In this document: positions 45,225 through 62,870 of the stretch, piece by piece | Layout of the letters: every line of letters starts with the position of its first letter | How positions within the stretch are numbered: the first letter of the stretch is position 1 | Source of the DNA: Eledone cirrhosa | Lineage: Eukaryota | Assembly (NCBI GenBank): GCA_964016885.1 | Contig: OZ024759.1 | Location: 12,648,001-12,712,000, forward strand | DNA length: 64,000 bases | Direction of reading: 5' to 3' | Position numbers and translations under genes: made by a program | Notes under the pieces: model-generated | Told to the model about the DNA's origin: nothing | Databases searched by the model: none | The model's input: the letters and a program-made list of their open reading frames with translations, nothing else

Positions 45225-45412
45225 AAATCTTGTTGAATTTTGGGAAAAATATTCAAGTTGATGAATTCATAACATTGTGCAATAAATTTGACCCCCAAGG
45301 CAATGACACTGTGGCCTACAGAGAAATGATTCGTTATTTTATATTGGATTTGAAACCTATGAAGCCAGTTTTACCTCAAAGGAAACTTCTTTATGACCAA
45401 AACATGGATAAG
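45225..45412 (+). CDS. EFCAB6: EFCAB6-like exon (phase 1/0): EILLNFG...KFDPQGNDTVAYREMIRYF...NMDK
   Basis: long T tract plus ttag acceptor, AAG|gtacgt donor; EF-hand-like loop. Confidence 0.85.
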
Positions 45413-45801
45413 GTACGTAACAGTTATTGCTGTCACGGTCGTGTGTCATCACCTTTGAGATATATATCATCATCATCATCATTTCATTTTTACGTCCACT
45501 TTTTCCCTGCTTGCAAGGGTGGGATGGGGACTGATTCTGGCTTGATTTCTACAGCTGGATGCCCTTCCTAACACCAACCTCATTTACAGTGAGTGCTGGG
45601 TGCTTTTTTGCCGTGGCACCTCCACGACCACTTTGCAGTGGAATGATAGGGACCCCAGTCCTATCATCTCATTTCTACAGCTGAGTAAACTGGAGCAATG
45701 TGAAATAAAGTGTCTTGCTCAAGGAAACAACACATCACCCGGTCTGAGAATTGAACTCACAACCTTTCGATTGCAAGGCCAATGCTCTAACCACTAAGCC
45801 A

Positions 45802-46017
<216 letters not shown>

Positions 46018-46087
46018 CAGAAAACAATAACAAAGAGTGCAGTACAAAGTGTTAGTATTAGGTACACGCTTGAGAGTGGGGGCGGGG

Positions 46088-46118
46088 GACGACGTTTCGG
46101 GCTTAAGCCCTTCGTCAG
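46088..46118 (-). ncRNA. Minimal hammerhead ribozyme motif (Penelope pLTR relic)
   Basis: - strand CTGACGA-A-GGGC-TTAA-GCCC-GAAAC-GTC: intact core and helix II, weak helix I. Confidence 0.6.
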
Positions 46119-46216
46119 GAGATAAGTGGGAAAGAAAAGAGTTCCGAGGGTGTGAGGGGGAGTGGTGGAAAGACATTCAGGTTACATGTACCTCTTGACC
46201 AGGATTGAACCCAAGG

Positions 46217-46250
<34 letters not shown>

Positions 46251-46469
46251 ATATGAGAGACGTAAAATAAGAAAATTATAAAATTAACTTACTTACTAAA
46301 AAATCACTTCCAACTAATTAGTTTCTGGAATGGAGTAAATATATTTTCCGAAGAAACATATAGAAAATCATTCCGTCATCAGGAAAGTCTTTTTCCGTGT
46401 AAGTCTCCAGGCATATTTGCTAGCATTGATATGCATCTGTGTGTATATAAATGTTACTAGATATAAATT

Positions 46470-46518
<49 letters not shown>

Positions 46519-47005
46519 TATATATATAATTAATACATATAAACAGAGTAAGCCTTAAGCGATACTCTGACCAACTCTATCTCACTCAACAAACATTAGG
46601 ATATACCTAAGTATTATCCCAATTTAGTATTTGGGGTGCTAACTAAACAGTATTTTGTGGATAGCTGGTTGTATTATTTTATATGAGACATAATTAAATA
46701 AATATCTCTTTCCTTCCAGACGATCGTTTCGTTATAAGATTTCTACAATTTGGGATAAATAATGTCCAGGTTATGTAGAAACTTGTATATAATCCATAGT
46801 TTTATACACAAGCAGGCTCTTAAAAACTCATCAGTGGATGCCCAAATAATATCGATATAAGAATTAAATCGACATTAATAGAATGGTGATGGTCTCCCTC
46901 AGCGCTAAGAAGAGACTGGTAGATTAGAAAATCCAGCAGTCCTCCCAAAGATAAAATACACCCTGTCCCCAAAAGGGTAAAGGGAGGTCACCTTAAAATA
47001 AAACA

Positions 47006-47053
<48 letters not shown>

Positions 47054-47206
47054 CTATGTCTATCTGACTTAGGATAAGACACTGTGTCATTGCATGTCGT
47101 AAGAAGTGACTGAAATGATTGGTGTCCGGCAGGGCATCAATATGTAAAATATTGCCTGAAAAAATCCCATTCAACCTATGGAAGAGTTCACATTAAAACC
47201 ATGATG

Positions 47207-50200
47207 ATGATGGTGGTTATATATCACTGGTCAGTCTATATTTATCTTCTACTTTGATCTGGGACCACTGACCACTGGTCTGTCCAATGATGGTGGTGGT
47301 TATATATCTCACTGGTCAGTCTATATTTAACTTCTACTTTGTTCTGGGACCACTGACCACTGGTCTGGCCAATGATGGTGGTGGTTATATATCTCACTGG
47401 TCAGTCTATATTTATCTTCTACTTTGATCTGAGACCACTGACCACTGGTCTGTCCAATGATGGTGGTGGTTATATATCTCACTGGTCAGTCTATATTTAT
47501 CTTCTACTTTGATCTGGGACCACTGGTCACTGGTCTGTCCAATGGTGGTGGTGGTTATATATCACTGGTCAGTCTAAATTTAACTTCTACTTTGATCTGG
47601 GACCACTGACCACTGGTCTGTCCAATGATGGTGGTGGTTATATATCTCACTGGTCAGTCTATATTTATCTTCTACTTTGATCTGGGACCACTGGTCACTG
47701 GTCTGTCCAATGGTGGTGGTGGTTATATATCACTGGTCAGTCTAAATTTAACTTCTACTTTGATCTGGGACCACTGACCACTGGTCTGTCCAATGATGGT
47801 GGTGGTTATATATCACTGGTCAGTCTATATTTATCTTCTACTTTGATCTGAGACCACTGACCACTGGTCTGTCCAATGATGGTGGTGGTTATATATCTCA
47901 CTGGTCAGTCTATATTTAACTTCTACTTTGATCTGGGACCACTGACCACTGGTCTGTCCAATGATGGTGGTGGTTATATATCTGACTGGTCAGTCTATAT
48001 TTATCTTCTACTTTGATCTGGGACCACTGGTCAATGGTCTGTCCAATGATGGTGGTGGTTATATATCTCACTGGTCAGTCTAAATTTAACTTCTACTTTG
48101 ATCTGGGACCACTGACCACTGGTCTGTCCAATGATGGTGGTGGTTATATATCTGACTGGTCAGTTTAAATTTAACTTCTACTTTGATCTGGGACCACTGA
48201 CCACTGGTCTGTCCAATGATGGTGGTGGTTATATATCTCACTGGTCACTCTATATTTAACTTTTACTTTGATCTGGGACCACTGACCACTGGTCTGTCCA
48301 ATGATGGTGGTGGTTATATATCTCACTGGTCAGTCTATATTTATCTTCTACTTTGATCTGGGACCACTGACCACTGGTCTGTCCAATGATGGTGGTGGTT
48401 ATATATCTCACTGGTCACTCTATATTTAACTTTTACTTTGATCTGGGACCACTGACCACTGGTCTGTCCAATGATGGTGGTGGTTATATATCTCACTGGT
48501 CAGTCTATATTTATCTTCTACTTTGATCTGGGACCACTGGTCACTGGTCTGTCCAATGATGGTGGTGGTTATATATCTCACTGGTCAGTCTATATTTATC
48601 TTCTACTTTGATCTGAGACCACTGACCACTGGTCTGTCCAATGATGATGGTGGTTATATATCTCACTGGTCAGTCTATATTTAACTTCTACTTTGATCTG
48701 GGACCACTGACCACTGGTCTGTCCAATGATGGTGGTGGTTATATATCTGACTGGTCAGTCTATATTTATCTTCTACTTTGATCTGGGACCACTGGTCACT
48801 GGTCTGTCCAATGATGGTGGTGGTTATATATCTCACTGGTCAGTCTAAATTTAACTTCTACTTTGATCTGGGACCACTGACCACTGGTCTGTCCAATGAT
48901 GGTGGTGGTTATATATCTGACTGGTCAGTCTAAATTTAACTTCTACTTTGATCTGGGACCACTGACCACTGGTCTGTCCAATGATGGTGGTGGTTATATA
49001 TCTCACTGGTCACTCTATATTTAACTTTTACTTTGATCTGGGACCACTGACCACTGGTCTGTCCAATGATGGTGGTGGTTATATATCTCACTGGTCAGTC
49101 TATATTTATCTTCTACTTTGATCTGGGACCACTGACCACTGGTCTGTCCAATGATGGTGGTGGTTATATATCTCACTGGTCAGTCTATATTTATCTTCTA
49201 CTTTGATCTGGGACCACTGGTCACTGGTCTGTCCAATGATGGTGGTGGTTATATATCTCACTGGTCAGTCTATATTTATCTTCTACTTTGATCTGAGACC
49301 ACTGACCACTGGTCTGTCCAATGATGATGGTGGTTATATATCTCACTGGTCAGTCTATATTTAACTTCTACTTTGATCTGGGACCACTGACCACTGGTCT
49401 GTCCAATGATGGTGGTGGTTATATATCTGACTGGTCAGTCTATATTTATCTTCTACTTTGATCTGGGACCACTGGTCACTGGTCTGTCCAATGATGGTGG
49501 TGGTTATATATCTCACTGGTCAGTCTAAATTTAACTTCTACTTTGATCTGGGACCACTGACCACTGGTCTGTCCAATGATGGTGGTGGTTATATATCTGA
49601 CTGGTCAGTCTAAATTTAACTTCTACTTTGATCTGGGACCACTGACCACTGGTCTGTCCAATGATGGTGGTGGTTATATATCTCACTGGTCACTCTATAT
49701 TTAACTTTTACTTTGATCTGGGACCACTGACCACTGGTCTGTCCAATGATGGTGGTGGTTATATATCTCACTGGTCAGTCTATATTTATCTTCTACTTTG
49801 ATCTGGGACCACTGACCACTGGTCTGTCCAATGATGGTGGTGGTTATATATCTCACTGGTCAGTCTATATTTATCTTCTACTTTGATCTGGGACCACTGG
49901 TCACTGGTCTGTCCAATGATGGTGGTGGTTATATATCTCACTGGTCAGTCTATATTTATCTTCTACTTTGATCTGGGACCACTGGTCACTGGTCTGTCCA
50001 ATGATGGTGGTGGTTATATATCTCACTGGTCAGTCTATATTTATCTTCTACTTTGATCTGGGACCACTGACCACTGGTCTGTCCAATGATGGTGGTGGTT
50101 ATATATCTCACTGGTCAGTCTATATTTATCTTCTACTTTGATCTGGGACCACTGACCACTGGTCTGTCCAATGATGGTGGTGGTTATATATCTCACTGGT

Positions 50201-50507
50201 CAGTCTATATTTATCTTCTACTTTGATCTGGGACCACTGACCACTGGTCTGTCCAATGATGGTGGTGGTTATATATCTCACTGGTCAGTCTATATTTATC
50301 TTCTACTTTGATCTGGGACCACTGACCACTGGTCTGTCCAATGATGGTGGTGGTTATATATCTCACTGGTCAGTCTATATTTAACTTCTACTTTGATCTG
50401 GGACCACTGACCACTGGTCTGTCCAATGATGGTGGTGGTGGTTATATATCTCACTGGTCAGTCTATATTTAACTTCTACTTTGATCTGGGACCACTGACC
50501 ACTGGTT
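47207..50507 (+). repeat. 85-bp minisatellite, ~39 copies, homologous to the adjacent intron/last-exon junction
   Basis: period 85; unit aligns with 50519-50605. Confidence 0.95.
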
Positions 50508-50568
50508 TGTAAAATAAAGGTAGGTTTATAAATGTCTCACTGGTCACTCTATATTATTTATCTTCCAG

Positions 50569-50847
50569 TTTGTTCCTGGGCCACTGGCCACTGGTCTCTC
50601 CAATGCAATGTTGAGAATATACCCCTGTGTAACGAAACATTGGAAAACGATGCGCAGGAACTTCTTAAGGGTTGATGCCCAGAAATCCGGGTTCATTGAT
50701 GCTACAAGTTTCCGACAGATACTTCGAAGTTACAACATTAACCTAACAGAAGACGAATTCCACAGCATCGTTACATATTATGATAAAGATTTCCATGGAG
50801 AAATAGATTATAATATCTTTCTGAAAGCCTTCCTCAAACATATTTGA
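50569..50847 (+). CDS. EFCAB6: EFCAB6-like terminal coding exon: [19 protein letters not shown]...[23 protein letters not shown]
   Basis: tcttccag acceptor, TGA stop; C-terminal EF-hand pair (W..MRR.F...D...G.I....FR..L..Y.INL.E.EF..I..YYDK.....I.YN.FL.AFL) closely resembles the EFCAB6 C-terminus as I recall it; no database search was run. Confidence 0.9.
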
Positions 50848-51617: not shown

Positions 51618-52229
51618 TATAATACATTATAAAGAAAGAAGAAACATTAGACATAAATAAAAATATATATAAATACCCAATATTCCCCTACATTCTCGAC
51701 TGCGCAGTTTCGTGGCTTCTTTGCAAAAACACTACATCATAGAGATGCAGTATTTCTGTGAGGTTTGTCAACTTATCAAGAGGACACCTCATTTAAAGTT
51801 TCAAAATACGTCTGCAAGGCGCGAGAGAGAACCTGGAAAGGCGGAGGGGGGACTTATCACATGATACAGTGGTCAAGAAACAGAGTTATGCCTCTTACAA
51901 CCAAGAGAAAAATACCACAATGGCGGAGGGGTGGGGTAATATCTGGGCTACAGACGAGGTGGCTAAGGAGGGCTAGAAGTGTAAATAGTGTAAGCTTGAC
52001 AGCAGTCACTATACTTCAGTGGTTACTCTACCGTAGGGAGTTATAGACTTTAAATGAAGTGTTCTCTTGATAAGTTGGCAAACCTCACAGAAATACTGCA
52101 TCTCTATGATGTAGTGTTTTTGCAAAGTAGCCACGAAACTGCGCAGTCGAGATTGTAGAGGAATATTGGGTATTTATATTTTTTTTTTACTTATGTCTAA
52201 TGTTTCTTCTTTCTTTATAATGTATTATA
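51618..52229. repeat. Inverted repeat: ~182-bp arms, ~247-bp spacer, hammerhead-like motif in the arms
   Basis: 51618-51799 is the reverse complement of 52047-52229. Confidence 0.9.
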
Positions 52230-52406
52230 CAGCTCTGATATAGAGTCAATCTAATTCATTCAGATTATTTTGTCCCTATTAATCATAGAGCAACAATGGT
52301 TAAGGTTGGCACCACACAAATTCAGTGATATATGTGGGTATATGCATGTATTCGCATGTGTCTGTGTATTTCTTTATATTGTATATATATATATATATAT
52401 ATATAG

Positions 52407-52615
52407 ATAGAATTCACAAGAATCAAAGCTATGTTCAAAGCATTTATTCACTTACAATTGTTTCATCCAAACCTAGGCTTGGAGTCTTCGGAGCATTTTT
52501 CAATGCTTGTACAATGCATTGAAAAATGCTTCGAAGACTCCAAGCCTAGGTTTGGATGAAACAATTGTAAGTGAATAAATGCTTTGAACATAGCTTTGAT
52601 TCTTGTGAATTCTAT
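52407..52615. repeat. ~209-bp near-perfect palindrome with a hammerhead-like motif
   Basis: arms complementary about TTGTACAA (~52511). Confidence 0.95.
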
Positions 52616-53399
52616 ATAACTGCTCTGTAGAACAACTGATGTTATTACATTGAGCTATTTATCTTACTGGTAATAAGGTAGTAATAAATTACTGACCTTC
52701 CCTGTTTATAGTTTAAAATATACATAACTATAAATAGCATCCTTAATATTATATATATATATATATGTATTTTTTTAAAACTTTTAAATCTTTTAACCCT
52801 TTAACATTTACATTACTCTATATATACTATTGTATTTTTGTGGTAAAAGCTTTATCTCACATAATATCAAATCTACGAGATTTTGATATTATTTATTTTG
52901 AGAACAATACCTTAACATCAGTATGAGTGACCAGTTACAGCCAGTTTGAACAGAAAAAAGATGTGAAAATTCTGGCCAGATACAGCCAGTTTAAATGCTA
53001 AAGGGTTAAATCTTTCGTCTCTTTTATATCCTCAGGTGTCTATCTGCATGTGTGTGCTTTTGTATATACATTTTAATTCTTTTAAAATAGGGTGTGCACA
53101 TGTGCGCGGGGACAGGAAATACCTGGGTTGGCGTCCAGGCGCGCAGAAAGCCCGCTGGTAGTGAGATGCCCCCTTAGATGTTGTCACAACATTTCTCGAG
53201 GAGAGGGAAACTCCGAATAAACACCTGATGTTGACCAGTTCTTCTTTTCGGTACATGCTCTCCATGCTCAGAGACTGGGATTAGTTCTGTGCAAGGCTTT
53301 TCTTCACTTAAAAAATTTCAAGCAAAGGCATCGCCTAATTGATTTGAACAAATAATTTGTTGCATTGTGGCTGGCTGTAGCCAAAATAGGTAAAAATAT

Positions 53400-60785: not shown

Positions 60786-61063
60786 GAAAAGGCAGATTAG
60801 AGACTTTTCAACGATTAGAAGTTGACGTAGTCTTTCTCAAAAAAGAAGGTGGAAAGAAAGAAAGAAAAAAAAAACAAAACAAGGAAACAAGGGAAAAAAT
60901 TTACTGAAGCAACAAACAAACATCACCACCTTCACTAGCAGCAGAAAGGGATCACTGGACGGTGAAAGTCTTGAACCCTTCTCTCTTTCTTTCTTTCCTT
61001 CCTTCATTTCTACTCGTGAAACCCCTTGTTTTAAGGAACCGATAACAACACCAACAATTAACC

Positions 61064-61087
61064 ATGTCTACAGATCGGCGTAGTCAG
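61064..61087 (+). CDS. Candidate first coding exon of the downstream gene (MSTDRRSQ)
   Basis: AACC-ATG context, 8 codons, consensus donor CAG|GTAAGA, preceded by 5'UTR-like unique sequence; product unidentifiable. Confidence 0.5.
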
Positions 61088-62870
61088 GTAAGATTTTAGA
61101 TAATATAGTGTATATATATATATATATATATACACACACATAATCGTTAAACGTTTGCCTCTCCCCCTGGACCCAAACGTTACACACATACATATATATA
61201 ACACAACCATATATATATATATATACGTTTGTATTATCAACTCATCTAAACTCATATCAATATATATATATGTATATATGGCACAAGCAGATGAAATCTG
61301 TTATATTACTGCTATTATCTATATTATTTACTATAGTAATTATTTATATTATTAATAGTATTAACAGAAATGTTGCGATATTTATCATCATTTTACGTCC
61401 GCTCTTCCCTGCTTGCAAAGGTGGGACGGGTCCTTTTCAGCATGGCATCTCTCTATTCGTCACAGTCCCTCGTCATCTCCTCTGTGAGCTTCAGCGATCT
61501 GAGGTCAGCTCTCACCACCTCCGCCCATGTTTTTCGTGGTCTTCTACTGCGTCTTCCTTCCACCGAGATTTCTTGGCACTTCGAGGTCAACTTTGCCCTT
61601 CATCCTTCCGGGATTGATAAAATAAAGTACCAGTAACACACTGGAGTCGAAATAATCAATTTATCCCTCGCCTCACCCCAAATTACTGGTCTTGACTGGT
61701 CCTGAAAACAGGAGTACGGGTCGTTAGAGCGTCGAACGAATGGTTAGCAGTATTTGTTGGTGATTTTTACTTGAGTTAAAACTCCTGCTTCTGACAAGAC
61801 CCACTGGAAGGAGTGTTTGAGGATCCTGCCCCCTTAACTCTTCGGGAATAAGTGGGCGAAGAAGAGTTAAAGTCCCGTTGAGATCAACTTTGCTTTTCAT
61901 CCTTCCGAGGTCGATAAAATAAAGTACCACTGGTGCAAATTTAAATGACTTTCCTCATTGCCACAAATTGCAGGCCTTGTCTAGATTTAGCAATCTTAAT
62001 TTTGATATGTCTAAACCTTTATTCTCGACGAGAATGACGAAATAGTTTGTAACAATCAGCTTTTTTAATATTTAAATAAAATTAGTTATCTGTCGTCTAA
62101 ATATCCCAGATACTTCGGAATGGCGAGGAAGAGAGCATGAGAGATTGTAAAGTAGGAAAACTAAATAAGTAATTTTAAACCTATTTTATTCTCAGTTGTA
62201 TAAATAACATTACAAATTGCTCACAATTCTTTCAGACAAATATAAACACATATAAGAAATACAGTTAACCAATTAACCATTGCTAGGAACCTCACCAATA
62301 TATGAGATTGAAAGCATGTCTTTGGTAAATATCTTCACTGGAAATTCTAACTAAAAACACCTCAAATATTATTTGGATTTTCATTTTAAAGGTAAATTGT
62401 AAATATGGCTGTCTATTTTGTGTTTACACTTTAGTGGCTTGTGTGTGTGTAGTTGTTTGTGTATATGTAGTTGTCTGTATGTATGTGTGGCTACGTGTGT
62501 GTGTGGCAATATGTATATGTATGCTTTCAGGATTTAAAGAAGAACCGAATAACAACGAAATGTGTGGTCACTCGATCTTATAAATGCTAGAAATAATAGC
62601 CAAATCTTCTTCTAACCACTAATTAAGTCTTGTACTCCTATATAAACATCTATAGTTATATATTTTTTATTATTATTTTTCACTCGAAAATTCCCGGAAG
62701 TTGTCTATTTTCAAACGAAAGACTCACTCCCAATATTTCACTTCCCTGGTTTACTTTAGAGATGTAGGAATTATAAACATTTCCCCCTCTCCCATCCACT
62801 GCACACTCAATTAAATTAAAGCTCGCTACTTGTTGATTTTTCTTTACCCGGAATACACCAACCTGTTACT

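Follow-up and report, generated by a model that had tools for sequence, protein, structure and literature searches.

A mirage-type minisatellite made from the last splice acceptor of EFCAB6 in the octopod Eledone cirrhosa

The EFCAB6 gene of Eledone cirrhosa carries, directly ahead of its last coding exon, a tandem array whose units are copies of the gene's own terminal acceptor region, and in which the acceptor AG has been lost from every copy. By three structural features (described below) this array fits the class of repeats known as mirages. We read it as a mirage-type minisatellite that likely stems from one local duplication, has since undergone ordinary tandem-repeat turnover, and is probably spliced out without any role (a probability of about 0.8). 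All positions refer to the analyzed stretch of 64,000 nucleotides, hereafter the window.

The host gene was mapped by alignment of the EFCAB6 proteins of Octopus bimaculoides (P0001) and O. vulgaris (P0002), which located 12 exons, a further exon of 45 nt being read from the sequence. Together these 13 exons form an uninterrupted frame of 700 codons closed by its only stop, and the product of the last of them (50569–50847) is 84% identical to the two Octopus proteins; EFCAB6 in the window is thus an intact octopod gene. The features at its 3′ end are as follows.

45225–45412, forward strand: penultimate EFCAB6 exon, placed by tblastn with both Octopus proteins, with a GTACGT donor at 45413; its 3′ end is matched by the loose end of a spliced contig from run X4.
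45413–50568, forward strand: last intron, 5156 nt (~3.3 kb of it array), delimited by the X4 contig and the exon boundaries.
47207–50506, forward strand: mirage minisatellite of 39 units, each combining intron end and exon start; the acceptor position reads CTAC in 35 units and TTAC in 4, and unit 39 is truncated.
48434–49975, forward strand: higher-order block within the array, recognized by an exact 862-nt run at a lag of 680 nt and by the variant string.
50507–50518, forward strand: 12 nt lying between the end of unit 39 and the template copy, either original intron or a diverged unit tail.
50519–50568, forward strand: intron end of the template copy, comprising a pyrimidine tract and the live acceptor CCAG, whose AG (50567–50568) is the top-scoring one of the intron.
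50569–50847, forward strand: last coding exon, 92 aa, encoding an EF-hand pair (by protein homology; stop at 50845–50847); its first 37 nt supply the exon part of the unit.

Split at a fixed anchor, the array resolves into 39 units of 83–88 nt in 18 sequence variants, and extending the split over 47215–50622 adds the true junction (~50519–50605) as a 40th, diverged copy; TRF likewise reports a period of 85, with 40.0 copies and 95% matches. Each unit corresponds to the terminal 50 nt of the last intron followed by 37 nt of the last exon, at ~83% identity to the template, and all 39 align across the 50568/50569 boundary. This agrees with the earlier note, which had described a ~3.3-kb array of some 39 copies of the gene's own last acceptor, and its proposed unit composition was borne out on alignment of the consensus to 50519–50605 (substitutions at 8 of 46 intron columns and 6 of 37 exon columns, p-distance 0.17). 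A 17-nt motif derived from the exon start recurs 42 times with up to three mismatches (mean of 0.28 in shuffled sequence); 38 full units and the exon itself account for 39 of these matches, the remaining three being three-mismatch background, and unit 39 is cut short at 50506, before its motif is complete.

The units are far closer to one another (on average 3.0 differences, counted over the 33 units that measure 85 nt) than to the template core (9–12 substitutions). An exact run of 862 nt recurs within the array at a lag of 680 nt, equivalent to eight units and visible in the variant string as BACHDIEJ BACHDIEJ; this repeat is a recent block duplication. Similarity to the template along the array has no significant gradient (rho −0.30, P 0.07). 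The 12 nt at 50507–50518 equal in length the unit tail that they replace and match it at 7 of 12 positions, and may be either an old, diverged tail or the original intron that gave microhomology. Coding potential within the array was considered and rejected (the longest stop-free stretch in six frames is 73 codons), as was a hairpin masking either the new CAG or the dead acceptor (both described below); the unit folds no better than shuffled sequence (z of −0.41 to 0.70 for four units, 1.02 for the junction and −0.67 for a 380-nt stretch).

The direction of copying is shown by the protein. The junction peptide reads NMDK/FAPGPL in O. bimaculoides and NMEK/FAPGPL in O. vulgaris (slash at the junction), with few residue differences, and a similar PG/GP motif occurs in several distant EFCAB6-like homologues (among 25 aligned of 150 listed). 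Since the junction peptide is conserved in the Octopus proteins, the repeat derives from the gene: sequence comparison shows the exon start to predate the repeat, the unit being a copy of the EFCAB6 acceptor region and exon start, as the earlier note had supposed. No orthologues closer than the two Octopus proteins were found, and changes within the exon part are thus without polarity. The converse history, in which the exon start and acceptor were taken from a pre-existing repeat through exonization of a terminal unit, would suit the position of the junction as a terminal, diverged array copy, but is opposed by the retention of the junction peptide in both Octopus species and its resemblance to distant EFCAB6-like proteins. 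The unit has, moreover, no match elsewhere in the 64-kb window; we regard this converse history as largely refuted and give it next to no chance.

The array is also present in sequencing data. DNA contigs from runs X1 and X3 contain unit variants and a head-to-tail loop, and in X1 the word depth of a variant scales with its copy number in the assembly (2 to 26 copies), with r = 0.995 and a slope of ~7.3 per copy. This fit uses seven of the eight listed X1 contigs (record 3, which fits several variants, was excluded) and includes record 4, which also fits several variants and was assigned to the 2-copy one, a choice that favors the fit; it checks the proportions of variants rather than absolute copy number. 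An assembly artefact or inflated copy number could draw on the facts that X1 and X3 are possibly the same sample as the assembly, that no listed piece spans the array and that single-copy depth is not shown, yet the agreement of variant depths with the assembly, together with the loop, makes such an artefact extremely unlikely and upholds the array as real.

We then consider the state of the acceptor within the copies. The CCAG of the template has become CTAC in 35 of 39 units and TTAC in the other 4, such that an AG at this position survives in 0/39, confirming the loss that the earlier note had reported for every copy read. All 39 units carry the identical G-to-C change; AG loss is therefore one shared event, not 39, consistent with the suggestion that one dead duplicate was amplified. 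At the divergence of the array, a hit on one or both of the AG bases has a chance of ~31% if all change is placed on the side of the copy. The alternative suggestion, that only an AG-less duplicate was tolerated, is not demonstrated, given a single event of this likelihood and the tolerance of AG-bearing duplicates in amphioxus BflGb6 and human CBS 844ins68 (see below).

Other changes have introduced new AGs. A new CAG lies upstream of the dead site in 35 of 39 units, as had been noted for most of them, though at 18 nt rather than ~20 nt; a new GAG, overlooked in the earlier note, lies 10 nt downstream of the dead site and behind the pyrimidine tract in 4 of 39 units, and a further 4 of 39 are without any AG. 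The observation that some units keep ancestral states stands as to the states themselves, the CAC of the junction being present in 4 units and TTTGTTC in 1, whereas their retention from the ancestor is only plausible: two clear variants equal the template, A/C and G/T variants at unit columns 59–60 are each one step off, and a rough model over 13 variants gives P(≥2) of 0.16 and P(≥3) of 0.03 for such matches. Back mutation, or conversion between the unit-internal CACTGGTC repeats, would also explain these template-like states.

Evidence for use of the true acceptor comes from X4, a run from another sample, whose kind is not on record and which is called RNA-like solely because its contig is spliced. 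This contig contains the exon from 50567 and then the end of exon 45225–45412, corresponding to the normal join of 45412 to 50569; at low depth, then, the true acceptor is used. The junction evidence is one contig with a word depth of 4.3, and contigs drop rare forms. Neither of the two X4 contigs that align here touches unit 39 or the intron end (a scope of 433 nt and one unit, at depth 4.3). With regard to the cryptic acceptors that the earlier note had proposed to seek in RNA, the sole X4 junction contig is thus the normal product, at a depth that leaves room for minor cryptic use or intron retention.

Site strength was estimated with a weight matrix built from the gene's 12 other acceptors, a coarse model under which real EFCAB6 acceptors score between −1.2 and 15.3 bits when left out in turn. 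The true acceptor ranks first of 134 AGs in the last intron (11.4 bits), while within the array the CAGs score 1.6–2.8 bits and the GAGs (four sites) 6.2 bits. Scored without the last two bases, the commonest dead site reaches 3.5; the true site then scores 7.4, and the other acceptors span −5.2 to 11.3. The dead site, lying within this span, would be an ordinary acceptor were its AG restored. Splicing to any one of the six last AGs in the array would bring a stop after 15–34 codons, and the unit CAG is in phase with the exon copy, such that a short tail and stop would replace the last EF-hand pair. Because AG-restored copies would score as ordinary acceptors and truncate the protein, loss of the AG has probably helped the array to be tolerated, and selection against a live upstream acceptor is a reasonable reading, which a single locus is insufficient to establish. 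On average, YTRAY-type 5-mers number 2.4 per unit within the array and 0.6 per 85 nt elsewhere in the intron, but the consensus unit's count of 2 branch-point-like 5-mers is not above shuffled sequence (P 0.32).

Two further splice-like elements were noted in the last intron. On the forward strand, 46720–46769 resembles a pseudo-exon, with the second-best acceptor of the intron (9.0 bits) and a GT at 46770; read in phase it has five codons followed by a stop, and it is absent from the X4 contig. It may be a candidate poison or alternative last exon, or a chance occurrence. A donor-like AAG/GTAGGT at 50517–50525 (forward strand) lies 49 nt upstream of the true acceptor and occurs in degraded form in the units; were the AG of unit 39 live, the two would delimit an exon of 40 nt containing a stop.

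The position of the array is best understood against the composition of the whole gene. Fourteen minisatellites (selected from TRF output, with units of 37–154 nt) cover 16,673 nt, or 34%, of the EFCAB6 span (2257–50847). Of 15 arrays tested in the window, nine match sequence beyond their own bounds, seven of them matching distant dispersed repeats and two matching each other; several EFCAB6 minisatellites are amplified pieces of dispersed repeats. Four other arrays start or end less than 100 nt from a splice site without including it. In a rough model that collapses each array to one unit and places it uniformly (this array included), the chance that one of the 14 seeds spans an acceptor is ~31%, and any splice site ~53%. 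One of the 25 splice sites in the window is duplicated, with no other mirage at the remaining 24. Given this chance of spanning an acceptor and a single duplicated site in 25, the position of the array is explained by a general tendency toward amplification of local sequence.

Downstream of EFCAB6 lie two inverted-repeat elements. One, at 51618–52229, is MITE-like, with arms of ~190 nt (141 nt at 94% and 46 nt at 98%) flanking a spacer of 247 nt; the other, at 52404–52618, is a palindrome whose 103-nt arms are 98% complementary and enclose a 9-nt loop. By eye, stretches between ~53400 and 57600 resemble decayed retroelement coding sequence, and a possible first coding exon of the next gene, with an ATG and a GTAAGA donor, follows a purine-rich leader at ~61060–61090 on the forward strand. 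An array of 23-nt units begins at 62870 and continues past the window end.

Mirages were reportedly first described by Canestro et al. in 2002. In later papers they are tandem repeats across an intron–exon boundary, found in amphioxus Adh3, the globins BflGb6 and BflGb9, troponin C and PGBD5, and showing concerted evolution, length instability and normal splicing (PMC3087553, PMC3902484). The EFCAB6 array has three structural properties of this class: it is a head-to-tail, minisatellite-like array (period 85, 39 units plus template), its unit crosses a host boundary that is supported by homology and by a spliced contig and that retains an authentic terminal copy, and its units evolve in concert (3.0 differences as against 9–12, with the exact 680-nt block duplication). 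As to normal splicing at the authentic site, the sole X4 junction contig is the normal join, at a depth of 4.3 that would hide rare forms. A parallel among these is BflGb6, which is also acceptor-side and in which haplotype 1 has lost the AG from three of six copies (D3–D5) and kept it in the other three, while haplotype 2 keeps it in three of three (PMC3087553). Against the amphioxus mirages so described, the present array differs in its octopod mollusc host, in its size (39 units, as compared with 3–6 in BflGb6), in the loss of the homologous AG from every copy, and in copies at 83% identity to the template that have acquired new, weak AGs. A search of the open-access literature returned no mollusc or cephalopod mirage.

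Related arrangements are known from human genes. In CBS 844ins68 the intron end and exon start are likewise duplicated immediately ahead of the genuine acceptor; splicing uses the distal site and the mRNA is normal. There, however, a single 68-bp extra copy leaves two nearby splice sites, whereas EFCAB6 has an array of dead upstream sites (PMC2630376). The 37-bp VNTR of F7 intron 7 places its terminal unit across an exon–intron boundary and its pseudo-sites are silent; it is on the donor side and its pseudo-sites are intact and potentially functional, in contrast to the acceptor-side, AG-less units of EFCAB6 (PMC1557585). Variable repeats at exon–intron boundaries also occur in human duplicated genes (PMC2812944). 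The length of an intronic VNTR near an ABCA7 exon correlates with exon skipping and expression (PMC5954066); this offers a model for an effect of copy number, which for the EFCAB6 array, likewise intronic and near an exon, would be hypothetical. Intron gain of the Rogers type, in which tandem duplication of a splice boundary leaves copies with usable AG and GT, through which a copy may turn into an exon (PMC3087553), was considered and set aside, the acceptor AG being kept in 0/39 units, with stops within 15–34 codons of the last six array AGs.

Taken as a mirage-type minisatellite, the array can be given a simple history. A short local duplication most probably set a copy of the acceptor region ~12 nt upstream of the template, in a genome that would seem to duplicate any sequence likewise, transposon pieces included. 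A single G-to-C change would then have killed the AG in the founder, or become fixed by homogenization. Slippage or unequal exchange would have expanded and homogenized the units, a pattern evident in the array, and recently by blocks, as in the exact 680-nt duplication. The true junction would have stayed outside this homogenization, held by coding and splicing constraint, and the spliceosome, at the low depth of X4, joins 45412 to 50569. No role is indicated by array structure, coding frame or branch-point enrichment.

Besides the low depth of X4, three observations sit less comfortably with such a passenger: AG loss in 39/39 copies is more uniform than in BflGb6, YTRAY-type motifs are more frequent in the array than elsewhere in the intron, and VNTR length can alter splicing in ABCA7 (PMC5954066). 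In other readings the array matters for splicing. An array neutral in origin might, through its weak CAG and GAG sites and its pyrimidine tracts, cause a slight delay or diversion in the removal of the last intron, scaling with copy number, in the manner of ABCA7; the best of the 39 array AGs (6.2 bits, the four GAG sites) do outscore 91 of the 92 AGs elsewhere in the intron, and in-frame readings from array AGs end in stops after 15–34 codons. Set against this, array AGs lie 5–10 bits below the true site, no such form occurs in X4 at its low depth, and the published mirages and the F7 IVS7 pseudo-sites are silent (PMC3087553, PMC3902484, PMC1557585), so that we hold a by-product effect of this kind to be unlikely. 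A stronger form, in which AG-dead tracts and weak AGs act as a copy-number dial that diverts the spliceosome, longer alleles giving more intron-retained or EF-hand-truncated product, and in which octopod acceptor-side mirages would be systematically AG-dead and donor-side ones not, seems to us distinctly improbable.

Splicing decoy elements bind the spliceosome unproductively and promote intron retention; the retention or skipping is lost on their deletion. The earlier note had proposed that the array could be a decoy field of this sort, with copy number tuning use of the last exon. As a selected device, its copies would have been kept and multiplied to bind U2AF/U2 unproductively. All 39 copies do combine loss of the homologous AG with a kept pyrimidine tract, at most 51 nt from the acceptor. 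However, the AG loss is one shared change with a likelihood of ~31% by chance, tract-damaging variants spread freely within the array, and the 13 other arrays of the gene behave alike without splice sites, in a gene full of minisatellites unrelated to them. The array AGs are weak, X4 contains the normal join, with no alternative product and no intron retention at its depth of 4.3, and branch-point 5-mers are not clearly enriched. A decoy field thus finds no support here, selection for one is very improbable, and the mirage-type minisatellite without a role remains our preferred reading.

The array extends mirage repeats to a cephalopod, with uniform AG loss as its distinctive feature. One locus is insufficient for a general statement; if acceptor-side arrays genome-wide were found to lose their AG above the expectation from divergence, they would constitute a natural test of competition between 3′ splice sites. 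The array also shows minisatellites inflating the introns of an octopod gene, to the extent of a third of EFCAB6.
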